Assembly: GCA_965208885.1 (NCBI GenBank)
Contig: CBDBPS010000002.1
Span: forward strand, 1,237,750-1,301,749
Source of the DNA: Dehalococcoidia bacterium
GTDB taxonomy: Bacteria; Chloroflexota; Dehalococcoidia; UBA2979
Direction: 5' to 3'
Length of the DNA: 64,000 nucleotides
Positions 861-53,945 of this stretch are shown in pieces. The position numbers and the translations under genes are program-made. Position 1 is the first letter of the stretch. Every line of letters begins with the position of its first letter. The notes under the pieces are model-generated. The model was not told the DNA's origin, did not search any database, and saw nothing but the letters and a program-made list of their open reading frames with translations.

Positions 861-899
861 CTCGGAGCGGAGGGCGCTGCCGCGCTGCTGGGCCCCGTC

Positions 900-6295: not shown

Positions 6296-6372
6296 CTCGC
6301 CGCCCGACCCGCGTTCCGGTCCCCTCGCCCCGTCGGGGAGAGGGTGAGGGTGAGGGGTCTGCCCGCGCGGTC
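6296..6372. repeat. GC-rich palindromic repeat element (reverse orientation) in the cinA / LuxR-LRR divergent intergenic region
   Basis: The reverse complement reads CCCCTCACCCTCACCCTCTCCCCGACGGGGCGAGGGGACC, matching the family. Confidence 0.8.
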
Positions 6373-6475: not shown

Positions 6476-8478
6476 ATGGAGCGCAACCGTGGCGGCCGAC
6501 CCCGGCACCCCGACGTCCTGACGCCGGCCGAGTGGCGGGTGCTCGAGGCGTTGCGCGAGGGCGGGACGAACGCCGAGATCGGCGCACGGCTCGGGATCAG
6601 CGCCGACGCGGTCAAGTACCACGTCTCGAACATGCTCGGGAAGCTGGAGTTGCGCGACCGCCGCGCGCTCGCCGCTTGGCGCCCCCAGGAGCGTCGAGGC
6701 CGGATGCCGGCGTGGTTCGCGGTCCCGGCGGCCCTCGCGGCCATCGCGCGGCCGGTCGCGTGGGTGGGGATCGGGACCGCGGCCGCTGTTGTGGCGGTGG
6801 CCGTGGTGCTCATAGTGGTGACAGGCGACGGCGAGCCGTCCTCGGTCGCCCTCCCGCCGGTCGCCACGCCCGACGCCACTTCGACGCCAGCGGCGACGGC
6901 GACGGTCGCGCCGACGGCGAGCGCGACGCCATCGCTCGCGCCGACCGTCACGCCCGCACCGGAACCAACGCCGACGCCCACACCAACTCCAGCGTCGACG
7001 CCGACGCCCACACCAACGCCGACCGCGGCACGCACGGGTCCTTCGGCACCGACGCTGCCGCCGTATTCGCTCACGGTGACCATCACGGGGCCTGGAGGCG
7101 AGGTTACGCCCGCGGGGATCACGACGCAGGACGCGAACAGCGAGGTGACGCTGACAGCCGCTTGGAACGACGCGACGCACGACTTCGGTGGCTGGACCGG
7201 CGACTGCAGCGGCACGACCACGACGTGCGTGCTCACGATGGATGCGGACAAGACGATGACCGCGACGTTCACTGCGTTGCCCGCCACGCGCTGCGCGACT
7301 CCCGCCGCCGCAGACTGCATCCGCGCCGTGTACCGGGCGCGCCCACGGACTACGCCCAGGTCGTCGATATCCCGGCGGAGGTGCTGATCACGCGACGTGG
7401 GGACGGTCACTACCCCGTGAGGCGTGGGCAGCAGATCACTGTGGTGACCGCTGCGCCGCTACCCACCGGTTGGACGCGCTTCTACCTGGAGCGCGACGCG
7501 GGGCCGACGTACTGGACGCCGTCGCCTGTGAGCTTCTCGCAACTCATCCAGCCCGTGGGGACGACCTACACGTTCACGGTGACCACCGACGATCGCGGCG
7601 CGGACCTCATCACGTTCGACCTGACCGCCGCGAAGCCACACCCGGAGCGGCCAACGGACAAGCCGGTGCTCGGCGACGTCGTCGTGACCACCGCCATTAG
7701 GGTCGTTCCTCAGAGCATCTTCAGCACGTGCAGGACGGGAACGCCTGTCCCCAACCCCGCAGCGAATCCTGCCCTCGTCGAGGACTGCGAGGCCCTGATC
7801 GCGTGGCGGGACACGCTAGCGGGTACGGCCACGCTCGAGTGGCACGCAGGCATTGCGATGACGAGCTGGCAGGGCGTGACTGTCGCGGGGACCCCGAGCC
7901 GCGTCACGAAGCTGGAGCTCGCGGACACAGGGTTCACGGGCGAGCTCTCGGGTCTCGTCGGCGAGCTCACGGGACTGACGGAACTGCGCCTGAACGGCAA
8001 CGCTCTCTCGGGGCGCATCCCTTCGAAGGTGGCGCTGCTGAGCCGCCTCACCCACGTTTACCTGGGTGGGAACGCGATCACAGGCTACGTGCCTCCATCG
8101 CTGCGGGCCGTCGCGAACCACGATATCGCGACCCTCGGCGGCCTCCCGGACTGTGGCGCTCCCGTGGATGTGTCCTACGGAGACCACACGCTGACCGCCG
8201 GCACGTACCAGGTCATCTGGGCTGAAGGCGATCCGCCGCTGGTCTTTGACATACCACCTGGGCTCCAGCTGGAGGTGGATGGCTGGGCGTACCAGGGTCC
8301 GGACGAGGTTGGGCTGATCCTGCGGGAGGTAAACGGTGAGGCGTTCATTGGTCTCGACGTGTACGGGCTGTACGGGGGCCCGGAATGGGGCCGCTATCTG
8401 CCCGATCCCGGCGACGACGCCCGCCTGATTCCACTCTTCGACCGCGTCGTTGAGTCAGCATGGATAGACGAAGGGTAG
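6476..8478 (+). pseudogene. membrane-anchored LuxR/GerE-family regulator with extracytoplasmic plant-type LRR sensor (paralog 2); the reading frame is broken by a 1-nt deletion near 7335-7345 (frameshift or sequencing error)
   Basis: Frame 2 (6476..7387) encodes the HTH, TM helix and a long Pro/Thr/Ala linker. Frame 1 continues without stops to 8478 and encodes an LRRNT-like cap ('C.AL..WR.........W.GV.V.G...RVT.L.L') plus LRRs ('LSGLVGELTGLTELRLNGNALSGRIPSKVALLSRLTHVYLGGNAITGYVP'). The frame junction maps by nucleotide alignment to the intact paralog at 50908..52518. The N-terminal part of the track ORF 6184..8478 is not homologous to that paralog. Confidence 0.6.
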
Positions 8479-8552: not shown

Positions 8553-9206
8553 TTACACCCGCAACCGCGGCGCTCGCGGCGAGCGGAACGCCATGCGCTC
8601 GACGGGCTCGCCGGCGACCGAGGCTTCGAGGAGGCCTGTGCGGTCGTAGGTGATTGTGGCGGGGGTGGTGGGGTTGGGGGCGTCGGGGGTGTCGCCGAGC
8701 GGGACCAACTCGGCGCGGACGCCGTCGGCGGTGAGTTCGAGGAGCGCGACGGAGCCGAGGCGCGTGCGCTGGTGGTGCGGGAACGTCGGGCTGCCGGGGT
8801 CGAGCAGGAGCGTCTCGTCGCGGTGGACGAGCCGCTCGTAGTGCGAGTCGCCGGCGATCAGGATGTCGAGCGAGGCGTCGCCGTAGACCTCGGCGGCGAG
8901 CTGGCGCGGCGTGTCGATGTGGGCCGGGATCGCCTCGACGTCATGCACCATCCCGACCCGCCACCCGGCGTGCTCGACGTACTGGACGCGGTCGCAGCGT
9001 GGGTCGGTGAAGTGGTCCTGCCCGCCGAGCGAGCAGACGACGGGCGCGAACTGCTCGCACCAGTCGAGCACGCGCGGCAGGACCACGTCGCCCGCGTGCA
9101 TGATCAGGTCGACGTTCGCGAACACCTCGAGCGTGCGGCCGCCGAGGTCTGAGACCTCGGCGATGGGGCCGGGGAGGTGTGTGTCGGAGATCACGCCGAT
9201 GCGCAT
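8553..9206 (-). CDS. metallophosphoesterase (YfcE/MJ0936-family phosphodiesterase)
   Basis: The motifs 'MRIGVISDTHLP', 'HAGD' and 'GDSH' are present. Confidence 0.85.
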   Translation of the reverse strand: MRIGVISDTHLPGPIAEVSDLGGRTLEVFANVDLIMHAGDVVLPRVLDWCEQFAPVVCSLGGQDHFTDPRCDRVQYVEHAGWRVGMVHDVEAIPAHIDTPRQLAAEVYGDASLDILIAGDSHYERLVHRDETLLLDPGSPTFPHHQRTRLGSVALLELTADGVRAELVPLGDTPDAPNPTTPATITYDRTGLLEASVAGEPVERMAFRSPRAPRLRV

Positions 9207-9243: not shown

Positions 9244-9300
9244 GAGAAGAGCCCCCTCACCCTCACCCTCTCCCCCGCAGACGGGGGCGAGGGGATCAGA
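9244..9300. repeat. GC-rich palindromic repeat element: CCCCCTCACCCTCACCCTCTCCCCC-GCAGAC-GGGGGCGAGGGGATCAGA
   Basis: The 50-nt core is identical to the copy at 53890-53940. Confidence 0.85.
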
Positions 9301-9315
9301 AGCGATGCTGTGGGC

Positions 9316-15091: not shown

Positions 15092-15730
15092 TCACGAACC
15101 GGAAAGCGCCCCCGCTCGGAAGCCACGCCCGAGCGCGCACCAGCGCTGCGCGAACTCCCCGGCGGGCGTCTCGCGCTGCCCCCAGCCCCGGAGGCACTGC
15201 TCGCGATGCGCGATGCCGAATGCCTCAGTGATCCACCGCTCGTAGGCCGCAATCCAGGCACACGCCTCGGGCACCAGGAGGCACGCCGCTGCGATCCCTC
15301 GTTGGGACTCCTCGGCGAGGGGAAAGGCGTCGAGACCTTCCATCATCCATGTGTCGAGTGGAGGGGCGTCGCAGGTGATCATGCGCGGGCGCATGTCGTA
15401 TCGGCCCAGGAAGATACCCTCCCCGCGTCCGCGCGAATAGAACATTCCCGACCCACGCAGCCAGACCCCTCCGCGATCGTTGATCGAGCAGGTGTAGCCG
15501 GCCGTTCGCCCGTCCGGTCCCAGCCTGGCGATGCGCTCCAGTCCGTAGCGAATGAGCAGGTTGCCGCAGGGGTAGCGAACATCCTGGCCCCAGCACCAGG
15601 CCTGATCGTGCATCAACGCCTCCGCCGCCTCCACCCAGCCAGCGTCGCTCGACGGTGCTTGCGATGGTTCTGCCGTGCTGATCAACGAAACAACCCTCGT
15701 GTAGCCAGTACATGCATGATCCCGCCGCAC
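15092..15730 (-). CDS. hypothetical protein (Trp/Cys-rich, lower GC)
   Basis: It shares codon boundaries with the + ORF 15071..15823. The minus frame has the higher GC3 (about 80% vs 65%) and a protein-like composition, whereas the + frame is R/P/A-rich junk. Confidence 0.45.
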   Translation of the reverse strand: MRRDHACTGYTRVVSLISTAEPSQAPSSDAGWVEAAEALMHDQAWCWGQDVRYPCGNLLIRYGLERIARLGPDGRTAGYTCSINDRGGVWLRGSGMFYSRGRGEGIFLGRYDMRPRMITCDAPPLDTWMMEGLDAFPLAEESQRGIAAACLLVPEACAWIAAYERWITEAFGIAHREQCLRGWGQRETPAGEFAQRWCALGRGFRAGALSGS

Positions 15731-15939
15731 TCCTCACCACTACCGATCTGCTGTGTCCTGCGGAGCAACGTGCCGACAACGGCCGTGACCTCGCGGCTCG
15801 GAGTCGATACAGAGTATCACTAGAGGGGCGTCGACGTCATCCGCATTCGGCGAGAGCGGGGGCACGAGGTGTGCTGAGCGCGCGGTTGCCTGCTCACCCG
15901 CCTCCGCCCTACCCTCGACACATGGCGGGGCGGAGCCGT

Positions 15940-16767
15940 ATGAGCGCTACCGAAGCCTCCGCTGTGACCACCGTCGGGGTGCTCGACTCCGGCGTCGGCG
16001 GCCTCAGCGTCGTCGCCGCCATGCAACGCGCCATGCCCGCGCTGCCCGTCCGCTACATCGCCGACACCGCCCGCTTCCCCTACGGCGACCGACCGCTCGA
16101 CGAGGTGGCCTCGCGCACCCTCGAGCTTGGAGCACGGCTCATGGACGAGGGCTGCGCGCTGCTCGTCATCGCGTGCAACACCGCATCCTCGGCCGCGCTG
16201 GAGCTGCTGCGCGAGCGCTTCGACGTGCCCATCGTCGGGATGGAGCCACCACTCAAGCCGGCCGCCGAGCGGACGCGCAGCGGGCACGTCGCGGTGCTGG
16301 CGACGGCGAACACCACCGAGGGCGATCGCCTCGCGCGGCTGCACGCGAGCTTCGCAGCCGACCGCGACGTGCTCACGGTCCCAATGCCCGGCCTCGCCGA
16401 CCTCGTCGAGGCGGGCGAGATCACCGGACCGCGCGTCGAGGAGATCCTCGGCACGGCCGTGGCGGCGCTGCAGGCCGACGGCGTCGACGAGGTTGCGCTC
16501 GGATGCACGCACTACGCGTTCCTGCGTCCCGCGCTCACCGTCATGCTTGGCCCGGGCGTCGAGATCATCGACACCGCCGAGCCGGTCGCGAGGCGCGTGC
16601 ATCAGCAACTCGAGGCCCACGGCAACACGATTCCCGAGGGTGAGCCGGTCGCAGCGGAGTGCATCGCGACCGGCGGCAGCCAGCCGTTCGGGGCGACACT
16701 CGCGCGACTGCGGGCGGCGGGCGCAGACTTGCCACTGTTACGCGTGACGGAGGAGGTAACTCCATGA
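15940..16767 (+). CDS. murI: glutamate racemase
   Basis: 'GVLDSGVGGLSV', 'IACNTAS' and 'GCTHY' motifs. GGAG RBS before ATG 15940; ATG 15922 is an alternative start. Confidence 0.85.
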   Translation: MSATEASAVTTVGVLDSGVGGLSVVAAMQRAMPALPVRYIADTARFPYGDRPLDEVASRTLELGARLMDEGCALLVIACNTASSAALELLRERFDVPIVGMEPPLKPAAERTRSGHVAVLATANTTEGDRLARLHASFAADRDVLTVPMPGLADLVEAGEITGPRVEEILGTAVAALQADGVDEVALGCTHYAFLRPALTVMLGPGVEIIDTAEPVARRVHQQLEAHGNTIPEGEPVAAECIATGGSQPFGATLARLRAAGADLPLLRVTEEVTP

Positions 16768-17579
16768 CGGTCGGGGCCACGTTCCGAGGGCGCTACGAGC
16801 GAGCGGCAAGCACCAACGACTCGCTGCTCTGCGTCGGGCTCGACCCCGATCCCGGTCGCATCCCGGACGGCGTCGTCATGCTCGACTTCCTCCAGGACAT
16901 CGTCGAAGCGACGGCGGACCTCGTGTGCTGCTTCAAGCCGAACGCGGCCTTCTTCGAATCGCGCGGCCCCTCGGGCGTCGAGGAGCTGCGCACGCTCATC
17001 GCCGCCATCCCGGACGAGGTGCCGGTGCTGCTGGACGCCAAGCGCGGCGACATTGGAAACAGCAGCGAGCACTACGCCCGCGCGGTGTTCGAACAACTCG
17101 GCGCGCACGGCGTGACCGTGAGTCCGTACCTGGGGCGCGACGCCGTCGAACCGTTCCTCGCGTACGAGGACCGTCACAGCTTCGTGCTGTGCCGCACCTC
17201 GAACGCCGGCGCGGGCGACTTCCAGGACCTGCCGGTCGGCGAGGGTGGGCGACCGCTGTACCTGCAGGTCGCCGCCGCGGCGAGCAAGTGGAACACGCGC
17301 GGGAACGTCGGGCTCGTCGTCGGAGCGACCTACCCGGGCGAAGCCGCCGAGGTGCGCACGCTCTGCCCGGACATGCTGCTGCTGATGCCGGGCGTCGGCG
17401 CGCAGGCCGGAGACCTCGATGCGGCCGTGCAGGCGGCGGTCGATGCCGAGGGCGGCGGCATCCTCGTCAACGCCTCGCGTGGCGTGCTCTACGCCGGCAC
17501 GGGCGGTGACCACGCCGCTGCCGCGCGCGCCGAGGCCACGCGGCTGCGCGACGCGATCAACGCCGCCCGCCGCGGCTGA
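16764..17579 (+). CDS. pyrF: orotidine 5'-phosphate decarboxylase
   Basis: 'LCVGLDP' and '[13 protein letters not shown]' motifs. GGAGGAGG RBS; the ATG overlaps the murI stop (ATGA). Confidence 0.85.
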
Positions 17580-17581
17580 GC

Positions 17582-17815
17582 ATGGTCCTGGACATCCGCA
17601 TGGGCGACGTGCTGCGGCTCCGCCGCAAGCACCCGTGCGGGGGCTTCGAGTGGGACGTGGTGCGCACGGGCGCCGACATCGGGCTGCGCTGCCGCACCTG
17701 CGACCGTCGGGTCCTGCTCGACCGCGCCACGCTGCGTCGTCGCGCCGAGGCGGTGATCGAGCGCGGGCCGCCACTGGACCCCGCCATCGAACGGGCGCTC
17801 GAGGGCGGCGAGTAG
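17582..17815 (+). CDS. DUF951-family small protein
   Basis: The conserved '[13 protein letters not shown]...[13 protein letters not shown]' pattern is present. Confidence 0.6.
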
Positions 17816-17927
17816 CCGCGGCGGATCGTGGATAGTCCGTGCGCCGGCGGGCGCTCCGTTCGTTGACGCCCTCCGAGCGGCGAACCTACACTCGATTTCG
17901 ATCCGGGAGCCTGGGCGGAGCCCCCTC

Positions 17928-18470
17928 ATGATCGAGATGACGATCGAGTCGATCCGGGTGAGTCTCCGCAACTACCAGCGGGTAGTCATCCTGCGCGAGC
18001 AAGGCTCCGATCGCTACCTCCCCATCTGGATCGGCCCCGCCGAGGCGGACGCCATCGCCGTCCGGCTCCAGGAGCAGACCGTCGCCCGCCCGCTCACGCA
18101 CGACTTGCTCAACAACGTGATCGGCGAGTTCGGCGGCGCCGTGAAGTTCGTCATCGTCAACGACCTGGAGAACGACACCTTCTTCGCCAAGATCAACGTC
18201 GAGCACAACGGCCAGACGCTCGAGGTGGACTCGCGCCCCTCGGACGCGATCGCGCTCGCCGTGCGCGCGGGCGTCCCTATCTATGCCAACGAGTCCGTGC
18301 TCGACCGCGCGGGCGTGCTGCTGAACGAGGAGGGCGAGCGCATCGAGGCTGGCGATGAGCAGGCCGGCGTCACGCCGGAGGAGCTCGAAAAGCTCTCCGC
18401 GTTCAGCGACTTCATCGATGAACTCGACCTCGACAATCTGGGTGACGACGAGAACCCGAAGGAGGGCTGA
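17928..18470 (+). CDS. bifunctional nuclease (BFN / DUF151) family protein
   Basis: The sequence 'VVILREQGSDRYLPIWIGPAEADAIAVRLQ...RPLTHDLL' matches the BFN domain. Confidence 0.8.
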   Translation: MIEMTIESIRVSLRNYQRVVILREQGSDRYLPIWIGPAEADAIAVRLQEQTVARPLTHDLLNNVIGEFGGAVKFVIVNDLENDTFFAKINVEHNGQTLEVDSRPSDAIALAVRAGVPIYANESVLDRAGVLLNEEGERIEAGDEQAGVTPEELEKLSAFSDFIDELDLDNLGDDENPKEG

Positions 18471-36099: not shown

Positions 36100-37479
36100 A
36101 TGGCCGACGAATACGCGCTGCCGGACCTCGGCGAAGGTATCGAGGAGGCCGAGGTCATCGGCGTCCTCGTGCACGTCGGCGATGTGGTCGAGGCCGACCA
36201 GCCGCTGATCGAGGTGGAGACCGAGAAGGCCAACCTCGACGTGCCGTCCCCGCACGCCGGGGTCGTCGAGGCGGTGCTGGTGGAGGTCGGCGAGGTAATC
36301 CACGTCGGCCAGGCCATCGTCTCGATCGCGCCGACCAACGGCGCGAGCAGCCCGCCCCCGCCGGCGGCCGTCGAGGCCCCCTCGGCGCCACCCGCAGCCG
36401 AGGGCAACGGCGCGCCTCCATCGGCGCCCGTCGTTCCCGCACCGGCCGCCGCGCCGCCGCAGGTCTCGGCACGCCCTCCCACGTTCACCCCGACGCCCGG
36501 GGCTGCGCCAGCCCTCGAGCCCGAGGGCCGCTCGGTCGCGGCGTCACCGGCGGTGCGGCTGTTCGCGCGTGAGATCGGCGTGCGCATCAGCGACGTGAGC
36601 GGGAGCGGGCCCGGCGGGCGCGTCTCGCTCGACGACGTGAAGGCTCACGCGCGCGCCCTGCTGACGCAGCTCTACGCCTCACCGCCCGCGGCCGCGCCGC
36701 CCGCGCCTGCTGCCCCCGCACCCGCACCCACTTCCGAGGCGGGTGTGCCGCCGCCGGTCGTGCTGCCGGACCTCGCTGCATTCGGGGAGATCGAGCGCGA
36801 GCGGATGTCGCCGACGCGCCGGGCCACGGCACGTAACCTCGCGCAGTCATGGGCGCACAGCCCACACATCACACTCCAGCAGAAGGCCGACGTCACCCAG
36901 CTCGACGCGCTTCGGCGCGAGCGCCGCGACGAGGTCGCGGCGTCGGGCGGCTCGCTCACGATGCTGCCGATCCTGATGCAGGTCGTGGCGCGCGCGCTGG
37001 CCGCGTTTCCGCGCCTCAACGCCTCGATCGACATGGCGACGCAGGAGACGGTGTACCGGCGCTACATCCACGTCGGCGTGGCGACCGACACCGAGCGCGG
37101 CCTCGTCGTCCCCGTCGTGCGCGACGCGGACCAGAAGTCGCTCACCGAGCTGGCCGTCGAGATCCGCGAGCTCGCCGAGAAGGCTCGCGACCGCAAGCTG
37201 TCGATCGACGACATGCGCGGCGGGACGTTCACGATCAGCAACCTCGGCGGGATGGGGACGGGCTTCTTCACCGCCATCCTGCACCCACCGCAGGTCGGCA
37301 TCCTCGCCGTCGGCCGCGCCGAGCGTGAGCCGGTGTGGGTCGACGACGGCTTCCAGCCGCGGCTGCGGATGCCCCTCGGCCTGACCGTCGACCACCGGCT
37401 CATCGACGGCGCCGACGCGGCGCGCGCGCTGAGCTGGATCGTCGGCGCGCTCGAGGAGCCACCGGAACTCGTCGTCTAG
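36100..37479 (+). CDS. dihydrolipoamide acetyltransferase (PDH E2)
   Basis: Lipoyl domain ('VETEKA'), an Ala/Pro-rich linker, an E3-binding region and the catalytic 'DHRLIDGA'. Confidence 0.9.
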   Translation: MADEYALPDLGEGIEEAEVIGVLVHVGDVVEADQPLIEVETEKANLDVPSPHAGVVEAVLVEVGEVIHVGQAIVSIAPTNGASSPPPPAAVEAPSAPPAAEGNGAPPSAPVVPAPAAAPPQVSARPPTFTPTPGAAPALEPEGRSVAASPAVRLFAREIGVRISDVSGSGPGGRVSLDDVKAHARALLTQLYASPPAAAPPAPAAPAPAPTSEAGVPPPVVLPDLAAFGEIERERMSPTRRATARNLAQSWAHSPHITLQQKADVTQLDALRRERRDEVAASGGSLTMLPILMQVVARALAAFPRLNASIDMATQETVYRRYIHVGVATDTERGLVVPVVRDADQKSLTELAVEIRELAEKARDRKLSIDDMRGGTFTISNLGGMGTGFFTAILHPPQVGILAVGRAEREPVWVDDGFQPRLRMPLGLTVDHRLIDGADAARALSWIVGALEEPPELVV

Positions 37480-37529
37480 CGTGCCGACCCCGGAAGCCCG
37501 ATGCTGGATCAGGAGTGGGAGAGACCCTC

Positions 37530-38987
37530 GTGACCACTGATTCTGCAGCGACGCCGGAATCCCAGGCAGGACGCGCCCGCCTGGCCGTCATCGGCGGTGG
37601 CCCCGGCGGCTACCCGGCCGCATTCCTCGCGGCCGACATGGGCATGCAGGTCACGCTCATCGACGAGGAGCCGAACCCCGGTGGGGTGTGCCTGTATCGC
37701 GGCTGCATCCCCTCGAAGGCGCTGCTGCACGTCGCCGCACTGATCGAGGAGGCAGAGCTCGCGAAGGACTGGGGTGTCGCCTTCGGCGAGCCGACTGTCG
37801 ACCTCGCAAAGCTGCGCGGCTTCAAGCAGGGCGTCGTCGACCGCCTGACCGGCGGGCTCGGCCAGCTCTCCGGCCAGCACAAGGTCAACTACGTGCAGGG
37901 GCGCGCGACGTTCCTCGACGCGCACACGCTCAGCGTCGCGCCCGCCGAGGGCAGCGACGCGCCGCCGACCGTGGAGTTTGACTACGCCATCATCGCTACT
38001 GGCTCCTCGCCGACACGCATCCCGGCGCTCGACATCGGCAGCCCGAGGGTGCTCGACTCCACGTCCGCGCTCGAGCTCGAGCGCGTGCCGGAGACGCTGC
38101 TCGTCGTGGGCGGCGGGTACATTGGGCTCGAACTCGGCAGCGTCTACGCCGCGCTCGGCTCGCGTGTCACCGTCGTCGAGATGACGAACGGGCTGCTGCC
38201 CGGCGTCGACCGCGACCTCGTGCGGCAGTTGCAGCGGCGGCTGCGCCGCAGCTTCGACGCGATCCGCCTCGAGACCACCGTGCTCGGCATGGAGGAGACG
38301 GACGACGGCATCCGCGCCCGCATCGCGGGCAACGAGGGCGAGCCCGAGGAGCACGTCTTCGACCAGGTGCTCGTCGCCGTCGGGCGCCGGCCGAACAGCG
38401 CGAACCTCGGCCTCGAACGCACCAGCGTGGAGGTCGACGCGCGGGGGTTCATCGAGGTGGACGCGCAGCGCCGCACGGCCGAGCCGCACATCCTGGCGGT
38501 CGGCGACGTGGCCGGGGAGCCGATGCTCGCCCACAAGGCCTCGCACGAGGCGTCGGTCGCCGTCGAGACCCTCGCCGGTCAGCCCTCGGTGTGGGGCGAG
38601 CGCACGGTGCCGGCGGTGATCTACACCGACCCGGAGATCGCGTGGGCCGGCCTCACCGAGACCGAGGCCACGGACCAGCGCATCGAGGTCGAGGTGTCGA
38701 CGATGCCGTGGGCCGCGTCGGGCCGCGCGACCACCATCGGCCGCAACGACGGCGCGACGAAGCTCGTCCTGGAGCCGCACACGCACCGAGTGCTCGGCGT
38801 CGGAATCGTCGGGAAGGGCGCGGGCGAGCTGATCAGCGAAGCCGTGCTCGCCATCGAGATGGGCGCGGTCGCGCAGGACCTCGAGCTGACGGTCCACCCG
38901 CACCCGACGCTGTCCGAGACGCTGATGCACGCGGCAGCGGCCTTCTACGGACGCAGCCCGGACTACATCGGGCGGCGCAGGCGATAG
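37530..38987 (+). CDS. lpdA: dihydrolipoyl dehydrogenase (E3)
   Basis: 'GGGPGGY', 'GGVCLYRGCIPSK' and the C-terminal 'HAHPTLSE'. GTG start at 37530 follows GGAGTGGGAGAG. Confidence 0.9.
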   Translation: MTTDSAATPESQAGRARLAVIGGGPGGYPAAFLAADMGMQVTLIDEEPNPGGVCLYRGCIPSKALLHVAALIEEAELAKDWGVAFGEPTVDLAKLRGFKQGVVDRLTGGLGQLSGQHKVNYVQGRATFLDAHTLSVAPAEGSDAPPTVEFDYAIIATGSSPTRIPALDIGSPRVLDSTSALELERVPETLLVVGGGYIGLELGSVYAALGSRVTVVEMTNGLLPGVDRDLVRQLQRRLRRSFDAIRLETTVLGMEETDDGIRARIAGNEGEPEEHVFDQVLVAVGRRPNSANLGLERTSVEVDARGFIEVDAQRRTAEPHILAVGDVAGEPMLAHKASHEASVAVETLAGQPSVWGERTVPAVIYTDPEIAWAGLTETEATDQRIEVEVSTMPWAASGRATTIGRNDGATKLVLEPHTHRVLGVGIVGKGAGELISEAVLAIEMGAVAQDLELTVHPHPTLSETLMHAAAAFYGRSPDYIGRRRR

Positions 38988-39625: not shown

Positions 39626-41326
39626 CTACGCGTCGAGTTCGTCTGGGAGGCGGAACTCGACGTCCTCCTCCGTCAGCACGATGGGCTCGACCTTCGTCAC
39701 ACCCCGCGCCTTGAGGTCTTCGATGATCGGGTCGAGGAGCTCGTCGGGGACGGACGCGCCCGACGTGAGGCCCACGACTTCGACGCCCTCGTACCAGGCC
39801 GGGTCGACGTCCTCGATGCCGTCGACGAGGTAGGCGGTTGCGCCGGCGTCCTCGGCTACCTCACGGAGCCGCATCGAGTTGCTTGAATTGCGCGAGCCGA
39901 CGACGAGCACGAGGTCCGCCCGCTGCGCGATCGTGCGCGCCGCGTGCTGGCGGTTCGTGGTGGCGTAGCAGATGTCGTTGCGGACCTCGGCGGCCGGGTA
40001 GCGGTCGCGGATCTCGTCGATCACGCCGGCGGTGTCGTCCATCGAGAGCGTGGTCTGCGTCACGACGAAGACCGGGCGCCCGATCTCGCCAAGCGCGGCC
40101 ACCTCGGACGGGTCCTCGACGACGTGCGTCCGCTCGGGCGCCTCGCCGAGCGTGCCGACGGTCTCGTCGTGGCCGCGGTGGCCCACCAGGAGCACGTCGT
40201 AGCCGCGCTTCGCGGCCTGCTTCGTCTCGAGGTGCACCTTCGTCACGAGGGGGCACGTGGAGTCGACGACGCGCAGGTTGCGTCGCTCCGCCTCTTCGAC
40301 CACCGCGGGCGAGACGCCGTGCGCACTGAAGACGACGCGCGAGCCCTCGGGCACCTCGGCGAGGTCGTCGATGAAGACGACGCCGCGCGCCTCGAAGCTC
40401 TCGACGATGTGGCGGTTGTGGACGATCTCGTGGAACGCGTAGATCGGCGGCGACTCGCGCTCGACGATCATCTCGAGCGCCTCGACGGCGCGCACCACGC
40501 CGGCACAGAAGCCGCGCGGGGCGGCTATCAGCAGCGTGTGCGGCGTGACGCCCGTGCGGTGGCGCGACGGCGCGTGCCGGGTCGGAGCGAGCGAGACGGA
40601 GCCATGCCTGAGCGGTGGCGGCGCCACGCGCCGGCCGCGGGGTCGGCCTCGGAGCGCGGTGGCGGACCATGCCGCCCGGCCACCATCGCCCCGATCCTCG
40701 CGATGCGGCATGACGTCGACGCGCGGCGGCAGCATCAGGCTGACGACGCGCAGCGCCGCCGGCGGGATGCGCTGGGCGTGCTTGCCGTAGAGCTCGATGG
40801 CTTCCCGGCGCTTGCGGCAGACGGCCTCGGAGACGCGCGCGTCGGCATCACCAACCACGCCGCGAACCTGCGAGACGGCGCCGAGGATTGGCTCGGTGAG
40901 CAGGTCCATGAGCAGCTCGTCCGTACCCGGCGTCCACCCGGGGTGGGAGATGCGGGGCGGGAGTGCGAGGCTCACGACACGCAACGCCGGTGTGGGGATA
41001 CGCTCGGCCTGCGCTCCGCAGAGCTCGAGGGCTTCCTGGCGCCTGCGGCTGACGGCCTCGGAGACGCGCTCGTCGGCCTCGCGGGCCACCTCGCGCACCT
41101 GCGAGACCACGTCGAGGATCGGCTCGGTGATGACGTCGACGAGCAACTCGTCGCCCGTGCGGGGCGACCAGCCGGGGTGCGTGAGCCGGGGTGGCAGCAT
41201 CAGGTCCACGACGCGCCGCACAACCCCGCGACTCCGGGTCGCGATGGAGTCCAGCCAGGTGCCGCCAGAGGCGTCTTTCGGCATCGACGGAATTCCCCCG
41301 TGCAAGCCTCGCCTGCACGCCGCCAT
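39626..41326 (-). CDS. ispH: 4-hydroxy-3-methylbut-2-enyl diphosphate reductase (IspH/LytB) with an in-frame N-terminal extension of about 250 aa; alternative shorter start ATG 40711
   Basis: The C-terminal 300 aa is canonical IspH ('PRGFCAGVVRA', 'HEIVHN', 'SAHGVSP', 'TCPLVTKVH', 'VVGSRNSSNS'). The frame stays open upstream through the tandem repeat region with GC3 above 90%; no stop separates it from the IspH core. Confidence 0.6.
   Translation of the reverse strand: MAACRRGLHGGIPSMPKDASGGTWLDSIATRSRGVVRRVVDLMLPPRLTHPGWSPRTGDELLVDVITEPILDVVSQVREVAREADERVSEAVSRRRQEALELCGAQAERIPTPALRVVSLALPPRISHPGWTPGTDELLMDLLTEPILGAVSQVRGVVGDADARVSEAVCRKRREAIELYGKHAQRIPPAALRVVSLMLPPRVDVMPHREDRGDGGRAAWSATALRGRPRGRRVAPPPLRHGSVSLAPTRHAPSRHRTGVTPHTLLIAAPRGFCAGVVRAVEALEMIVERESPPIYAFHEIVHNRHIVESFEARGVVFIDDLAEVPEGSRVVFSAHGVSPAVVEEAERRNLRVVDSTCPLVTKVHLETKQAAKRGYDVLLVGHRGHDETVGTLGEAPERTHVVEDPSEVAALGEIGRPVFVVTQTTLSMDDTAGVIDEIRDRYPAAEVRNDICYATTNRQHAARTIAQRADLVLVVGSRNSSNSMRLREVAEDAGATAYLVDGIEDVDPAWYEGVEVVGLTSGASVPDELLDPIIEDLKARGVTKVEPIVLTEEDVEFRLPDELDA
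40741..41230 (-). repeat. diverged tandem duplication (2 x about 234 bp, roughly 75% nt identity) inside the N-terminal extension of the ispH reading frame; each copy encodes an LPPR(L/I)(T/S)HPGW...TEPIL...VSQVR...RVSEAV...RIP...ALRVVSL motif
   Basis: Self-alignment of 40741-40975 against 40975-41230. Confidence 0.8.
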
Positions 41327-41370
41327 TTGTCCAGCGTCGAGCGCGAATATTTCCGATCACGAACGGCATC

Positions 41371-41700
41371 CGGCCCCTCGCCCCGCCGTCGGGGGCGAGG
41401 GGATCAGATCTGGACCCCGCAGGGCCCGCTGGGGGCGAGGGGAGCCGATCCGTCCCCCTCTCCCTGTATGGCTGGGTCGGCGAGCCGAGGGCGCGCCCTC
41501 GGCTCGCCTCGATGCGGGGATACCCCGCTGGCCCCGCCGGGGGCGAGGGAAGCCGATCTGTCCCCCTCTCCCCTTGTGGGAGAGGGCTGGGGTGAGGGGT
41601 TCCGGCGGCTGGCGCTCTTCGCGTGGCGCCCCCCTCACCCTAACCCTCTCCCCCCAGGAGGGGGGCGAGGGGATCAGATCGGGCGCCGGGGGCCGAGCCT
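41371..41700. repeat. tandem cluster of at least five GC-rich palindromic repeat units (GGGGGCGAGGG(G/A)(A/G)(T/G)C(A/C)GATC with CCCCTC(A/G)CCC / CCCTCTCCCC arms) in the ispH / RM-enzyme divergent intergenic region
   Basis: Copies at 41371-41414, 41417-41480, 41517-41600, 41630-41700 and partial arms between them. Confidence 0.85.
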
Positions 41701-41751
41701 GTGTCCCAACGGACGCAGTCCATTACGATCGCGCTGAAGCGAGGAGCGCCC

Positions 41752-44682
41752 GTGACCGCCGCACCCGGCATCTCCGCCGCCGCGTTCGCCGCCAAGTGGC
41801 GCGACAACGCGCGCCGCGAGCACGCATCCTCGCAGGAGCACTTCATCGACCTCTGCCGCCTGCTCGGCGTGCCGACGCCCAATGAGGCCGACCCCACCGG
41901 CGAGTCGTACACGTTCGAGGCGGGTGCGGAGCGGCTCAGCACGGGGCGGCAGGGCTGGGCCGACGTCTGGAAGCGCGGCCACTTCGGCTGGGAGTACAAG
42001 GGCGCGCACGCCGACCTCCGCGCGGCCTACCGCCAGCTCCTCGACTACCGCGAGGACCTTGAGAACCCGCCCGCGCTCGTCGTCAGCGACATGGACCGCA
42101 TCGAGGTCCACACGAACTTCACGGGCACCCGCCCCGTCGTGCACGACGTCACGCTCGACGACCTGGCCGAGGGCGGCGACCGTACCGCCGAGGCGATGCG
42201 CATCCTCGGCGCCGTCATGCTCGACCCCGCCGCGCTGCGGCCGGAGCAGACGCCCGACGAGATCACGCAGCTGGCCGCGGCGCGCTTCGCCGAGATCGCG
42301 CAGTCCATGCACGAGCGCGGGCACGACCCGGAGGCGGTCGCGCACCACCTCAACCGCGTCGTCTTCTGCCTGTTCGCCGAGGACGCCCGCCTGCTGCCGG
42401 AGCGCGTGCTGACCGAGATGATCGAGTCGCGCCGGGGCGACCCGGAGGCGTTCGACACCGGGCTGCGCGAGCTGTTCCTACGGATGTCGGACCGCGACGC
42501 CGACCGCTTCTACGGCAACGTGCGCGTCGAGTGGTTCAACGGCGGGCTCTTCGACGACGCCGAGGTGATCCCGTGTACCCGCGAGGAGCTGCGCGCGATG
42601 CACGACGCGGCGCTGCTCGACTGGTCGCGGGTGGAGCCGGCGATCCTCGGCACGCTGTTCGAGCGCGGGCTGGACCCGGACAAGCGCGGTCAACTGGGCG
42701 CGCACTACACGGACCACGAGAAGATCATGATGGTGGTCGAGCCCGTGGTGCTCGAGCCGCTGCGCCGCGAGTTCGAGGCGATGCAGGCGCGCGTCGAGGA
42801 GCTGGCGGGCGGGCAGGAGCCGAGCCCGCTCACGCTCGACGGTCGCCGCCGCGAGCGGCTACCGGCGTGGGAGCGGGACGCCGAGGCGGAGTGGCGGGCG
42901 TTCCTCGAACGGCTGCGGGCGGTGCGGGTGCTGGACCCGGCGTGCGGGTCGGGGAACTTCCTGTACGTGACGCTGCGGCGGCTCAAGGACCTGGAGCATG
43001 AGGCGATCCGCTGGGGCGCGGAGCGGCTGCGCATTCCCGCCGACTTCCCGCAGATCGATCCGCACAATGTGCTGGGCATCGAGATCAACCCGTACGCGAG
43101 GGAGCTGGCGGGCGTCTCAATCTGGATCGGGCACATCCAGTGGATGATCGACCATGGGTACGGTCTCCCGCGCGACCCGGTGCTCGATCGACTCGACAAC
43201 ATCGAGCTACGCGACGCGATCCTCGCCTACGACGACGAGGGCACCCCGGTTCCGGCCACCTGGCCGGAGGCCGAGTTCGTCGTCGGCAACCCTCCGTTTC
43301 TTGGTACCAAGCTCATGAGGCTGTCGCTGGGGGACGAGTACGTCGGCGACGTGTTCGTTGCGTGGGACGGCTCAGTGGCTCGCGAGTCGGACTTGGCGTG
43401 TTACTGGCACGAGCTCGCGCGAAGGCGGATCGCGGAGGGCGTGACGCGGCGCGCAGGTCTCCTCGCTACTAACTCGATCCGCGGCGGCGCGAACCGCACC
43501 ACGCTCGACCGGGTCAAAGGGAGCGGCGAGATCTTCATGGCCTGGTCTGACGAGGAATGGGTCGTCGAGGACGCGGCTGTGCGCGTTTCGATCGTCGGGC
43601 AGGACGACGGCTCGGAGGCCGAACGGACACTCGACGGAGATGTTGTTGACGTGATCAACAGCAACCTGACGACCGGCGTAGACGTGACGCAGGCTCGCAT
43701 GCTCGGTGAGAACGCGGATGCCTCGTTCATGGGGGACACTAAGGGCGGAGCATTCAACGTTCCGGGCGAAGTGGCCCGCGAGATGTTGAAGCAGCCCACG
43801 AACGTCAACGGGCGCCGCAACGCTGACGTGCTGGTGCCTTGGGTGAATGGGCTGGACGTCACCCGGAGGCCACGGGGCACCTTCATCATCGACTTCGGTG
43901 CGGACGCCAGCGGGTCTGACGCGGCTGCGTACGAAGCGCCGTACGGGTACGCCCGGAAGCACGTCCAGCCAGTTCGCGCGAACAACCGGCGCAAGGCTTA
44001 CCGCGAACGGTGGTGGCTCCATGTTGAGCCCCGACCAGCGATGCGAAAGGCTCTGGCTCCGCTACGCCGTTTCGTCGCAACGCCCACGGTGGCCAAGCAC
44101 CGCCTGTTCGTCTGGCTGTCAGCCCCAACGCTCCCCGACCACCAACTCATTGTCATTGCGCGGGAGGACGACTACGCGTTCGGGGTGCTGCACTCGCGGG
44201 CGCACGAGCTATGGTCGCTGCGCATGGGGACGTGGCTCGGCGTTGGGAACGACCCGCGCTACACGCCCACCTCCACCTTCGAGACCTTCCCCTTCCCATG
44301 GCCCCTCGACACCCCCGACGAGGCGCTGACCGACGAGCAGCGCGCGCACCGCGACGCCATCGGCGAGGCGGCGCAGGCGCTCGACGAGTCGCGTCGGCGC
44401 TGGCTCAACCCGCCCGAGCTCGTGCGCGAGGAGCCCGACGTTGTGCCCTCGCTGCCCACGCGCCTGCTCCCCGTCGACGGGGACGCCGAGCGGGTGCTCA
44501 AGCGCCGCACGCTCACCAACCTCTACAACGAGCGCCCGGCGTGGCTCGCCAACCTCCACCGCGCCCTCGACGCCGCCGTGTTCGCGGCCTACGGGTGGTC
44601 GGAGGCCGGGGAGCCGGATGAGCTGGGGGAGGAGGAGCTGCTGGGGCGGCTGCTGGCTCTGAATTTGGAGCGGGCGGGGTAG
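41752..44682 (+). CDS. MmeI-family Type IIL (type IIG) restriction-modification enzyme: N-terminal PD-(D/E)xK endonuclease fused to an N6-adenine methyltransferase and target-recognition region
   Basis: N-terminal 'WADVWKRGHFGWEYKG' (D...EYK, matching MmeI-family 'FW.GK.LIEQKS'). MTase motif I is 'VLDPACGSGNFLY' and motif IV is 'VVGNPPFLG'. A roughly 400-aa lower-GC C-terminal region follows. GTG 41752 with a GAGGAG RBS; the track start 41701 is the alternative. Confidence 0.85.
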   Translation: MTAAPGISAAAFAAKWRDNARREHASSQEHFIDLCRLLGVPTPNEADPTGESYTFEAGAERLSTGRQGWADVWKRGHFGWEYKGAHADLRAAYRQLLDYREDLENPPALVVSDMDRIEVHTNFTGTRPVVHDVTLDDLAEGGDRTAEAMRILGAVMLDPAALRPEQTPDEITQLAAARFAEIAQSMHERGHDPEAVAHHLNRVVFCLFAEDARLLPERVLTEMIESRRGDPEAFDTGLRELFLRMSDRDADRFYGNVRVEWFNGGLFDDAEVIPCTREELRAMHDAALLDWSRVEPAILGTLFERGLDPDKRGQLGAHYTDHEKIMMVVEPVVLEPLRREFEAMQARVEELAGGQEPSPLTLDGRRRERLPAWERDAEAEWRAFLERLRAVRVLDPACGSGNFLYVTLRRLKDLEHEAIRWGAERLRIPADFPQIDPHNVLGIEINPYARELAGVSIWIGHIQWMIDHGYGLPRDPVLDRLDNIELRDAILAYDDEGTPVPATWPEAEFVVGNPPFLGTKLMRLSLGDEYVGDVFVAWDGSVARESDLACYWHELARRRIAEGVTRRAGLLATNSIRGGANRTTLDRVKGSGEIFMAWSDEEWVVEDAAVRVSIVGQDDGSEAERTLDGDVVDVINSNLTTGVDVTQARMLGENADASFMGDTKGGAFNVPGEVAREMLKQPTNVNGRRNADVLVPWVNGLDVTRRPRGTFIIDFGADASGSDAAAYEAPYGYARKHVQPVRANNRRKAYRERWWLHVEPRPAMRKALAPLRRFVATPTVAKHRLFVWLSAPTLPDHQLIVIAREDDYAFGVLHSRAHELWSLRMGTWLGVGNDPRYTPTSTFETFPFPWPLDTPDEALTDEQRAHRDAIGEAAQALDESRRRWLNPPELVREEPDVVPSLPTRLLPVDGDAERVLKRRTLTNLYNERPAWLANLHRALDAAVFAAYGWSEAGEPDELGEEELLGRLLALNLERAG

Positions 44683-50907: not shown

Positions 50908-52518
50908 CTAGTCCTGCTCCCACATGGACTCGACGATCCGGTCGAAGATCTCGCTGGTGTCCGCCCGAACTCCAGTCGGGAAGTCCGGCGCGAATTTGCG
51001 GACCCATTCTCCGCCGAACTCCACGTCGAGTCCTATTGATGCGGTCTGGCTTGCATTTCGGATGATGATGCCGACATCTCCACCTCTCGGTACCGCCAAG
51101 GCGGTGTCAGGCGTAGCCAAGAAAACTCCCTTGAAGATCAGCTGCTCGCCTGGGGGTATGTCGAAGACCAGTGAAGTAGCCTCCAAGTCGAGGCGGTAAG
51201 TACCGGGAGCTAGAACGCCATCCCATTCGATAGTCTCGATGTCAGCGGGCGCTCCGCAGTCGTCGTGTGTGACGTCGTTCGTCGCCACCTGACGCAGTAC
51301 CGGGGGCGCGCACCCCTCGAAGTCCGTCCCCGTGATGGAGACGCTCGTCAGGCTGTCCAGTTGCGCAAGCTTCGACGGGAGCATGCCCGTGAGTGGGTTG
51401 CCACTGAGGTCCAGCGTCGTCAGCCCGGTGAGATTGCCGAGCAGCCCCGACAGCTCGCCGTCGAGGCCGAGGTCTGCCAGGTCGAGGGCGGTGACGCGTT
51501 GGGGCGTGCCGGAGACCGTGACGCCCATCCACTCGGACATCGCCTTCGCCGCCGTCCAGTTGAGCCTGCCCGTCCCGCGGATCGTGTCGCGCAGGCCCAG
51601 CAGCGACTCGCAGTCCGCCACGAGCTCGGTGTTCGTCGTCGGGTTCGTCGCGATCCCCGACGAGCAGTCCTGCACCTCGACGCCGGTCGTGACCACGGTG
51701 GCGCCGATCTCCGGCTTGCCGTCCGACGGCGGGCGGGGGAAGGGCCGCGCGGCCTTCAGGTTGTAGGTGACGGTCGACGCCGCGGTGGCCTCATCGCTGA
51801 CCGTGAAGGTGTACGTCGTCCCTACCGGTGGGATGAGCCTCGATGCCGAGACCGGTGGGATGACCGGTGACGGCTCGAGGTAGAAGCGCGTCCAGCCGCC
51901 GGGCAGCCGCGCCGCTGTGACGACCGTGACCTCGAGCCCCGCGTCGACGTGGTAGGTGCCGCCCGGCCCGGCGTTGAGCCGCATCGCGGACGGGATGTCG
52001 ACGACGTGTGCGTAGTCCCCGGGCGCGCCGATGTAGACCGCGTGGATGCACGTCGGGTCGGTCGGTGTCGCGCAAGCGTCGGGCGCTGGGGCCGGTGCTG
52101 CGGGCGTCGGGTCGGTCGGCGGCGCGACGGCCGCCGACGGGTCGCTGTCACCCTCCACGACCGCCTCGAGGGCCACGAGCGCCACCACCACGACGACGAC
52201 ACCGCCAAGCGCCGCCGCGCCAGCCCCGACCCACACCAGGGGCCGCCCCAGCGACCACAGCGCTGCCGGCAGCGCGAACAGCGCGCCCAGGCGGCCTCGA
52301 CGCCCTTCGGGGCGCCAGGCGACGAGTGCGCGGCGGTCGCGCAGCTCCAGCTTCGTGAGCATGTTCGAGATGTGCGTCTTGACCGTCTCGGCGCTGAGGC
52401 CGAGGCGCGCCGCGATCTCGGCGTTCGTGCCGCCGTCGCGCAGTGCATCGAGCACCCGCCACTCGGCGGGCGTCAGCACATCGGGATGGCGTGGCCGGCC
52501 GCGACGGTTGCGCTCCAC
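50908..52518 (-). CDS. membrane-anchored LuxR/GerE-family regulator with extracytoplasmic plant-type LRR sensor (paralog 3, intact)
   Basis: GTG start at 52518 is chosen by homology: 'VERNRRGRPRHPDVLTPAEWRVL' aligns with 'MERNRRGRP' of the paralogs. HTH, TM helix, Ala/Pro linker, LRRNT-like cap ('CESLLGLRDT...W.GV.V.G...RVTAL.L') and LRRs ('LSGLLGNLTGLTTLDLSGNPLTGMLPSKLAQLDSLTS') follow. The track ORF extends to 52662, but that region is not conserved. Confidence 0.75.
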   Translation of the reverse strand: MERNRRGRPRHPDVLTPAEWRVLDALRDGGTNAEIAARLGLSAETVKTHISNMLTKLELRDRRALVAWRPEGRRGRLGALFALPAALWSLGRPLVWVGAGAAALGGVVVVVVALVALEAVVEGDSDPSAAVAPPTDPTPAAPAPAPDACATPTDPTCIHAVYIGAPGDYAHVVDIPSAMRLNAGPGGTYHVDAGLEVTVVTAARLPGGWTRFYLEPSPVIPPVSASRLIPPVGTTYTFTVSDEATAASTVTYNLKAARPFPRPPSDGKPEIGATVVTTGVEVQDCSSGIATNPTTNTELVADCESLLGLRDTIRGTGRLNWTAAKAMSEWMGVTVSGTPQRVTALDLADLGLDGELSGLLGNLTGLTTLDLSGNPLTGMLPSKLAQLDSLTSVSITGTDFEGCAPPVLRQVATNDVTHDDCGAPADIETIEWDGVLAPGTYRLDLEATSLVFDIPPGEQLIFKGVFLATPDTALAVPRGGDVGIIIRNASQTASIGLDVEFGGEWVRKFAPDFPTGVRADTSEIFDRIVESMWEQD

Positions 52519-52551
52519 GGAACCATCGTAGAGCCTGTGGCGCGAATTACC
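52519..52551 (-). promoter_or_regulatory. conserved promoter-like motif GGTAATTCGCGCC...TACGAT-6nt-GTG upstream of paralog 3
   Basis: Alignment with the motifs at 2250-2284 and 6440-6475. Confidence 0.35.
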
Positions 52552-52662
52552 TCCCCCGGCTGCCCGCCGGGGCCCACGTGCAGTGACGGCCCCTACAAGG
52601 TCGACGAGGGGTGACCCGGCCTGGACGACCGCTCGCAGCGCGATCAGATCGTCCGTCCGCAC

Positions 52663-53553: not shown

Positions 53554-53814
53554 CGGTAGCGTTCCTTCGCAATGTGCATGGCGCACTCGGCGCGGCCGGA
53601 CGGCCGTCGCGAGCACGTGAGGAGTGCCTGGGGGTCAGGGCGGGAGCTACGCCCGAGGTGGCTCGGTCGGGACGGAGAGCGGGCGGGTGCGTGGAGTGGG
53701 CGCCACGCTCGCGAGCTCCCGATCAACTCGCGCGGCACGGGACGTGGCCCCATCGACGAGCTGGCCGTGCTGAGCTACACGCCGCCGTCCCCCGCGTAAC
53801 CTCGCCCCGTCGAT

Positions 53815-53945
53815 CCGTCCCCCTCTCCCTCTCTGAGAGAGCTGGGGTGAGGGTCCGACGGGCTCCTCGGCGGCTGTTCGCACCCAGCCGGACCCCCTCA
53901 CCCTCACCCTCTCCCCCGCAGACGGGGGCGAGGGGATCAGATCGC
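53815..53945. repeat. two GC-rich palindromic repeat units; the second (53890-53940) is identical over about 50 nt to the copy at 9246-9296
   Basis: Direct comparison. Confidence 0.85.

Follow-up and report, generated by a model that had tools for sequence, protein, structure and literature searches.

We analysed a 64,000-nucleotide stretch of contig CBDBPS010000002.1 from a Dehalococcoidia bacterium (hereafter the window), with a GC content of around 70%, in which a family of short, structured repeats occupies five intergenic loci. Fourteen units were recognised, six of them complete (1a, 2, 3, 4e, 4f and 5b) and eight partial or degenerate, the latter located through fuzzy matching and by eye. 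The loci, delimited by a combination of reading by eye, repeat finding and fuzzy motif search, span positions 657-862, 6313-6358, 9251-9302, 41373-41680 and 53812-53943 and are referred to as loci 1 to 5; the initial annotation of this DNA had already recorded repeats at all five.

According to a gene map based on Pfam matches and on GC content at third codon positions (GC3), all 14 units are intergenic, even though intergenic DNA makes up only around 8% of the window. Six units lie on the plus strand and eight on the minus strand. Three of the five loci (6.3 kb, 41.4 kb and 53.8 kb) are positioned between divergently transcribed genes, and not four as originally proposed, while those at 0.7 kb and 9.3 kb separate co-directional genes. 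The single unit at 9.3 kb, for instance, occupies the space between the stop codon of a hexapeptide-transferase gene (9316) and the start codon of a metallophosphoesterase gene (9206).

The pattern, the order of the blocks, the subtypes and the geometry of paired units all match copies known from Escherichia coli, leading us to assign the family to the class described there as BoxC, PIT or TMECO. We consider it probable (around 0.75) that the window elements are Chloroflexota copies of this class, and that they represent selfish, structured intergenic DNA whose effects are mainly to destabilise the DNA around it.

Structure and predicted folding of the units

The definition of TMECO, CCCTCNCCC-N3-6-GGGNGAGGG-N3-GGGNGAGGG, is that of Holder et al. 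2015 (PMC4666352), who equate the motif with E. coli BoxC and the 'potential intrastrand triplex' (PIT) elements of Maher, citing Bergler 1992 and Hoyne & Maher 2000 as the earlier sources. Searching the window with the corresponding three-block pattern, CCCTCNCCC–loop–GGGNGAGGG–loop–GGGNGAGGG, with the first loop loosened to 3-10 nt from the published limit of N3-6, gave six matches, compared to none in 100 dinucleotide-preserving shuffles. These lie at 660-692, 6322-6356 and 41564-41598 on the plus strand and at 9254-9293, 41632-41671 and 53895-53934 on the minus strand. Rfam covariance models produced no match at gathering score anywhere in the window.

Each unit is composed of a short tail (GATC-N-G-N-TC), a C-rich stem (CCCTC[G/T]CCCC), a loop of 3-7 nt and two G-rich blocks. 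The tails in the window read GATCTGATC-CCCTCGCCCCC or GATCTGTC-CCCCTCTCCCC. Two subtypes can be distinguished: in type A the C-stem contains a G mismatch and the second loop is T-rich (TTA or TGA), whereas in type B the stem is perfect and the second loop rich in C and G. The initial annotation described two arms, which prove to be a single family in both orientations: the forms CCCCTCACCC...CCCTCTCCCC and GGGAGAGGG...GGGGTGAGGG are one element on opposite strands, and the core CCCCTCACCCTCACCCTCTCCCCC-loop-GGGGGCGAGGGGATCAGATC similarly shares its architecture with the form GTCCCCCTCTCCCC-loop-GGGAGAGGGCTGGGGTGAGGGG on the other strand. Conservation between copies may be high, units 3 and 5b sharing 49 identical bases (9252-9300 and 53893-53941), in line with the identity over about 50 nt noticed previously.

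Units occur singly or, more often, as doublets of around 110-135 bp in which a B unit and an A unit are inverted relative to each other (B-> <-A) across a conserved spacer. In the window this arrangement is seen for 1a/1b, 4e/4f (spacer 33 nt) and 5a/5b, in each case with the G-rich ends facing inward; where doublets abut, the result is a mosaic similar to those formed by BIMEs.

When folding was computed with Watson-Crick pairs only, hairpins were predicted on both strands with DNA free energies of -10 to -15 kcal/mol per unit. The very stable hairpin postulated initially is thus real as a prediction but, given the base composition, not extraordinary, since z-scores against shuffled sequences range from -1.3 to -3.5. 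The two G-rich blocks are mirror-symmetric, direct reading of the sequence giving GGGGAGAGGG, a 3-nt loop and GGGTGAGGGG. With GGGGGAGAGGG as the first block and GGGTGAGGGGG as the second, 10 of 11 triads would be canonical, the lone mismatch triad being that of the E. coli 'type A mm' variant, and a mirror repeat of this kind suits a reverse-Hoogsteen third strand. The sequence would therefore allow the C-stem and first G block to form a hairpin in single-stranded DNA, with the second G block so placed that it could fold back and supply the third strand of an intrastrand triplex of the purine motif. Since the G-rich strand also contains a canonical (G3N3)x4 quadruplex motif, an alternative fold, in which the four G3 tracts form a G-quadruplex (G4), would likewise be permitted.

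Table 1. Repeat units and the nested insert in the window (positions as in the 64,000-nt stretch).
Feature	Positions	Strand	Description
Unit 1a	657-693	+	Complete type-B: CCCTCTCCC-CGA-GGGAGAGGG-CAG-GGGTGAGGG
Unit 1b	738-788	-	Degenerate type-A with ATCAGAT tail; B-> <-A doublet with 1a, spacer ~47 nt
Unit 1c	793-831	+	Degenerate type-B; opens a second, partly deleted doublet
Unit 1d	841-862	-	Type-A fragment: half stem and tail (GCGAGGAGATCAGACT)
Unit 2	6313-6358	+	Complete, type-A-like, single; 26-70 nt upstream of the cinA start codon (6287)
Unit 3	9251-9302	-	Complete type-A, single; 49 nt identical to unit 5b
Unit 4a	41373-41410	-	Perfect 11-bp hairpin and ATCAGATC tail; without the third (second G) block
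Unit 4b	41414-41450	-	Partial type-A: G-stem and tail AGCCGATC; tail-to-tail with 4c through a shared GATC
Unit 4c	41447-41470	+	C-stem half of a type-B unit; hairpin loop broken by the following insert
Nested insert	41471-41521		Unrelated to the units; perfect 30-nt palindrome (41479-41508) and small hairpin GCGGGGATACCCCGC
Unit 4d	41522-41558	-	Copy of 4b; part of the 108-bp duplication
Unit 4e	41555-41600	+	Complete type-B, tail GATCTGTC
Unit 4f	41629-41680	-	Complete type-A; second loop TTA as in E. coli type A
Unit 5a	53812-53855	+	Degenerate type-B, tail GATCCGTC; left end of the 132-bp doublet
Unit 5b	53892-53943	-	Complete type-A; right end of the doublet 53812-53943

The 41.4-kb mosaic and the orthologous sites of relatives

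The region 41371-41700, first taken for a five-copy tandem cluster, is not a head-to-tail array of five units: two full and four partial units alternate in orientation, accompanied by an insert unrelated to them and by a 108-bp duplication (41414-41471 versus 41522-41579, 86% identical). The insert is predicted to fold with a free energy of -18.8 (z -3.2), and its small hairpin, at 41514-41528, extends into unit 4d. A syntenic relative (L100) has a single B unit at this site with the same palindromic insert inside the hairpin loop (L100 9818-9903), so that the window array can be explained by an L100-like structure to which the 108-bp duplication and extra units at both ends were added.

Homologs of the ispH and phosphoesterase genes place the window in Chloroflexota, the hits bearing the names Chloroflexi, Dehalococcoidia or Chloroflexota bacterium. 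The closest contigs belong to metagenome assemblies from Mediterranean sponges, LXNI01 and MKWU01 (PMC5099237, PMC5649159), and the window lineage is a sponge-associated one. Five syntenic loci of relatives align to the window at 85-93% nucleotide identity, and the arrangement of the elements in them differs strikingly. In 42 kb of syntenic DNA two of these relatives (L103 and L106, around 88% nucleotide identity) are free of elements altogether. The stretch of around 310 nt with four units at locus 1 of the window corresponds to around 40-60 nt in L106; at locus 2 both flanks align in L106 and the unit is absent; and locus 4 has no element in L103. Empty sites are thus found at loci 1, 2 and 4, while locus 3 yielded no clean alignment. 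Other relatives (L099, L100 and L104) possess units at the same sites in different numbers and arrangements. In L104 and L105 some 85 codons, among them those of the N-terminal metal-binding motif, are missing from the start of the metallophosphoesterase gene, the breakpoint falling exactly at a doublet (L104 9872-10000 and L105 1-106, compared to 8973-9206 in the window). The leftover metallophosphoesterase open reading frame (ORF) is annotated as hypothetical in a related Chloroflexota metagenome-assembled genome (MAG). Such sites are hot spots of change, in agreement with E. coli, where TMECO loci are more rearranged among 56 genomes (PMC4666352).

Since elements are missing from orthologous sites, the neighbouring genes evidently do not need them. 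This bears directly on the possibility that the units are cis-regulatory DNA or RNA elements, such as a G-quadruplex/hairpin switch, an insulator or a transcript-stabilising hairpin, which control the flanking genes. Three loci do lie in divergent promoter regions, one of them with unit 2 close upstream of cinA, the G-rich strand carries the quadruplex motif, and circular dichroism (CD) has revealed an ion-dependent G4/hairpin switch for E. coli copies (PMC5100583). The argument from divergent promoters made initially is nevertheless weak, applying to three of the five loci and meeting orthologous promoters of close relatives that are without elements; two loci are intercistronic, and the units, found in either orientation, lie at distances from start codons that vary. 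A consensus scan of 41200-41800 found no sigma-70-like promoter, and the same interval contains no terminator-like site, ATCAGATC rather than a T-run following each hairpin. The opinion that these are not simple terminators therefore stands. The lack of Rfam matches also speaks against a regulatory element, as do the E. coli copies, for which neither correlation with gene function nor promoter or terminator activity was observed (PMC4666352). Given the empty orthologous promoters in particular, a built-in regulatory or insulator role for the flanking genes is unlikely.

Practically negligible is the chance that the region is low-complexity coding sequence, with genuine ORFs of the PLTLTLSP type. 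Long ORFs do cross it (e.g. 39944-41737 and 40797-41885, both on the plus strand), but they do not show the GC3 signature that real genes have in this 70% GC genome, Pfam and homologs define the flanking genes well, and close relatives lack the segments or have them rearranged with no reading frame disrupted. The gene map, GC3 and the empty sites in relatives effectively refute coding, which the initial annotation had named as a potential objection to its own view. Its suspicion that the repeats generate spurious ORFs was well founded, CCC CTC ACC CTC ACC CTC TCC CCC being read as P-L-T-L-T-L-S-P.

For the preferred interpretation, selfish BoxC-type DNA, the following course of events may be envisaged. 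The units would be non-autonomous structured DNA rather than promoter or terminator signals, and would persist solely where their insertion is tolerated, namely in intergenic DNA, to which divergent promoter regions and the gaps between cistrons also belong. Strand separation during replication or transcription would allow the folded structure to form, which could in turn provoke slippage, deletion, duplication and nested insertion. Local instability would then be the main consequence of the units, any effects on expression being incidental. Instability driven by structure in this way would explain both the 41.4-kb mosaic and the differing configurations in close relatives.

Some further features were noted in and around these loci. 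The 30-nt palindrome of the nested insert is GGCGAGCCGAGGGCGCGCCCTCGGCTCGCC. The 15-nt hairpin GCGGGGATACCCCGC recurs in L106 (1958-2254) as the core of a perfect tandem array of 11 copies of 27 bp between DUF58 and MoxR genes, at a position where the window has just a 6-nt gap (12174/12181). Also in L106, IS110-family and IS3-family (rve) transposase genes are found between cinA and an MFS gene (15524-18159), the corresponding position in the window being occupied by a LuxR paralog and a metallo-beta-lactamase-fold gene. The window encodes three paralogous LuxR(GerE)-type regulators, at 2285-3565 (+), 6476-8478 (+) and 50908-52662 (-), with 77-83% identity over their first 300-376 nt and, in two of the three, weak sub-threshold matches to leucine-rich repeats; two of them border BoxC loci. 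The ispH gene at 39626-41284 (-) has an N-terminal extension of around 250 amino acids containing an internal 231-nt duplication (40718-40921 versus 40949-41152, 78% identical). The extension is common to close relatives (552-600 amino acids), while most other Chloroflexi homologs have 311-321 amino acids. Finally, the 96-nt tRNA-Arg(TCG) predicted by ARAGORN at 37655-37750 (-) lies within a dihydrolipoyl dehydrogenase ORF (37335-38987, +) and is probably a false positive.

Distribution and possible mobility

The family extends well beyond the window, contrary to one outcome envisaged at the outset, being present in 17 metagenome contigs, in the syntenic relatives and in other Chloroflexi MAGs, one of which contains 11 full units in 32 kb. 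The 17 contigs contain the type-A subfamily, and six of them end inside a unit. Most metagenome copies belong to B-> <-A doublets, 109-135 bp long, whose ends are GATCCGGCC... and ...ATCAGATC. In the Chloroflexi MAG SB0661_bin_44 (L046) a type-A stretch of 47 nt is identical to that of the window, and its doublet, spacer included, aligns with the whole of the locus 5 doublet. A scan of a genome collection with the 19-nt stem-plus-tail sequence returned 96 loci, with multi-copy matches in Cyanobacteria, Polyangia, Devosia, Pirellula and Acidimicrobiia. The head, hairpin and tail architecture is retained in Cyanobacteria, Polyangia, Chloroflexi, Devosia, Pirellula, Gemmataceae and Acidimicrobiia. 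The three-block pattern was also found in more than 120 viral or prophage contigs of IMG/VR (L107-L226), some of which carry Mu-like portal, protease and head-tail connector genes, and such contigs are a possible route for horizontal spread. Cyanobacteria bacterium LVE1205-1 (CP089922, L001-L094) has a 155-bp miniature inverted-repeat transposable element (MITE) whose terminal inverted repeats (TIRs; CTGGTTGACTGACAAAAG) measure 18 nt and which shows target-site duplications of 9 bp in 15 of its 23 copies; its internal cargo is a tail-to-tail BoxC A/B pair with the identical 19-mer GGGGCGAGGGGAGCCGATC.

The initial annotation spoke of a REP/MITE-like element. That part of it describing a genuine multi-copy, intergenic, hairpin-forming repeat family is borne out, while the identity with the BoxC/PIT/TMECO elements already described (PMC4666352, PMC5100583) was missed. 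Two mechanisms of movement may be considered. First, the units might be elements of REP/REPIN type whose movement depends on a RAYT, or on some other single-strand transposase of the HUH class, acting in trans, in which case the hairpin and GATC tail would be recognised and the doublet would be the mobile entity. Inverted doublets with a conserved spacer, BIME-like alternating arrays and clean presence or absence at orthologous sites are all as expected. So too are the hairpin ends and the lack of target-site duplications at around 10 distinct doublets, as predicted for HUH transposition.

The enzyme itself, suggested initially as an IS200/IS605-like partner, did not come to light in the sequence searched. 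Pfam searches revealed no RAYT or Y1 transposase among the ~50 ORFs of the window, and jackhmmer, phmmer and hmmsearch runs with E. coli RayT found none in six-frame ORFs of the window and of ~222 kb from the same lineage, nor any BoxC-flanked RAYT gene in ~1.9 Mb of other element-bearing loci. The only RAYTs encountered were in two Candidatus Binatia MAGs (L023 7105-7632 and L027 962-1489, E = 1e-44 against E. coli RayT), and these are flanked by classical GTAG-type REPs (GTAGGTCGGATTAGC-type) and not by BoxC units. A BoxC-like 19-mer, GATCGGCTCCCCTCGCCCC, within the Binatia RAYT coding sequence corresponds to an insertion of around 7 amino acids relative to E. coli RayT and is probably a coincidence. 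Furthermore, the 5' end of the units is GATC-N-G-N-TC, and they lack the GT[AG]G head that is reportedly typical of RAYT-associated REPs. E. coli K-12 encodes a RayT, which is tied to REP/BIME elements and is not known to be tied to BoxC. For the sequence covered, movement by a RAYT or a related HUH enzyme appears doubtful.

Nor did an all-against-all BLAST of 8,922 ORFs show any mobilising enzyme recurring beside the elements; the neighbour families that did recur were phage structural genes of related phages or prophages among the IMG/VR matches, and offered no mobilising candidate.

Secondly, the doublets might be MITEs moved by a DDE transposase, with the two BoxC units serving as TIRs. 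The doublet does possess imperfect TIRs (GATCCGGCCCCCTC... versus ...GAGGGGATCAGATC), a trivial consequence of the inverted pairing of its two units, and the LVE1205-1 pair does sit in a true MITE. The TIRs of the latter are, however, outside the BoxC pair, which is therefore to be regarded as cargo and not as the end bound by a transposase. In the Chloroflexota copies themselves target-site duplications, whose presence had been suggested as a check, were found neither as direct repeats flanking around 10 distinct doublets nor on comparison of filled and empty sites. A CGCGGG direct repeat at locus 2 was considered and dismissed, being indistinguishable from chance in GC-rich DNA. Single units and tail-only fragments are common, and Pfam detected no DDE transposase among the ~50 ORFs of the window. 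We consequently view a MITE origin as quite improbable.

A broader and admittedly speculative proposal, for which we would see only a slim chance, is that BoxC doublets constitute a non-autonomous, pan-bacterial element which travels horizontally and is copied by an enzyme specific for sequence and structure, a candidate being a single-strand HUH-type nuclease which recognises the hairpin and the GATC-containing tail. If true, this would account for near-identical units of 40-50 nt in Chloroflexota, Myxococcota, Alphaproteobacteria, Planctomycetota and Cyanobacteria, for the insertion of doublets without duplications and for their hitch-hiking in MITEs and phage genomes, and the triplex or G4 potential would then be a by-product or a recognition feature.

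Several observations weigh against the assignment of the window units to selfish, destabilising BoxC-type DNA. The literal N3-6 limit on the first loop is respected by only three of the six pattern matches (660, 6322 and 41564); the remaining three exceed it, because their stems are of 11 bp and not 9 bp, and have a true loop of 6-7 nt. The co-variation in length of the C-run and of the two G-runs (r 0.5-0.6 over 197 distinct copies) speaks in favour of the structure but is weak evidence, as it may be due just to common ancestry of subfamilies and part of this set was chosen with a pattern that fixes some positions. In vivo dimethyl sulphate (DMS) footprinting in E. coli suggested that the triplex is at most transient (PMC4666352). 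The link to instability is correlative, and presence or absence could reflect active insertion instead of structure-driven loss. Finally, a purely neutral selfish model has difficulty in accounting for units of 40-50 nt that are nearly identical across phyla, which suggests recurrent horizontal transfer or a trans-acting factor with sequence specificity.

While the repeat family itself is already known from E. coli, its presence at high density in a sponge-associated Chloroflexota lineage is new, as are the conserved doublet, whose ends are defined and which has no target-site duplication, and the explicit filled and empty orthologous sites. The latter, along with the gene truncation and the nested insertion and duplication, support the published link between the motif and instability. 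The conserved doublet and the cyanobacterial MITE provide starting material for the question of cross-phylum spread, to which near-identity across phyla and the carriage of BoxC units by MITEs and phages are suggestive pointers. In practical terms, the units should be masked in annotation as BoxC-type repeats, being sources of spurious PLTLTLSP and GEGxGEG ORFs, and they break metagenome assemblies, as the related contigs ending inside a unit illustrate.

Comparison with known systems

The window elements resemble REP, BIME and REPIN sequences in being short GC-rich extragenic palindromes with inverted doublets, alternating mosaic clusters and no target-site duplications. They differ in having no GTAG-type head and no detected RAYT in the sequences searched, and in possessing a third, G-rich block that is absent from REPs. 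With the LVE1205-1 MITE they share the tail-to-tail A/B pair and its 19-mer, whereas the outer TIRs and the 9-bp duplications are particular to the cyanobacterial element. The hairpin core is also common to the palindromes CCCTCTCCCXX(X)GGGAGAGGG of Enterobacter sp. 638, which number around 100, are intergenic and often duplicate or triplicate, and are placed at gene 3' ends with a presumed terminator role (PMC2869309). In contrast, the window copies lie mostly upstream of genes, and a T-run follows none of them.

The closest resemblance is to BoxC/PIT/TMECO. In Proteobacteria 3,610 TMECO copies were counted in 262 genomes, with 23 in E. coli K-12; they are always intergenic, show no strand bias and fall into a subtype A, with TTA as second loop and usually one mismatch, and a subtype B, with CCG as second loop, which also form A+B inverted pairs (PMC4666352). 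The E. coli triplex was demonstrated with CD as well as nuclear magnetic resonance (NMR), is stable in vitro and stops polymerase in vitro, and no promoter or terminator activity was detected (PMC4666352). The same motif has been described from CD as the HPG1/HPG2 G-quadruplex-hairpin switch (Kaplan et al. 2016, PMC5100583). From this precedent we infer for the window copies triplex or G4 formation, polymerase blockage, inactivity as promoters or terminators and a connection with rearrangement.

The window units reproduce the three-block order and near-identical block sequences of the K-12 copies, the mismatched A and perfect B subtypes, the strictly intergenic location and the lack of strand bias. 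Their doublets have the geometry of the E. coli pair at 3,045,989-3,046,087, and they are likewise patchy among close relatives and tied to local rearrangement. The tail is related, reading GAC(A/G)GTC-CCCTCGCCCC in E. coli, but differs in the window type-A units, which have GATCTGATC in place of GAC(A/G)GTC. Further differences are that window stems reach 11 bp and type-A first loops 6-7 nt, and that the doublet spacer, around 33-47 nt and conserved in the lineage, is unrelated to that of E. coli. The host is a sponge-associated Chloroflexota lineage of ~70% GC, whereas the genomes reported in the 2015 survey were proteobacterial, and the density of the elements, at around one full unit per 10 kb in the window, may be compared to around 23 per 4.6 Mb in K-12.

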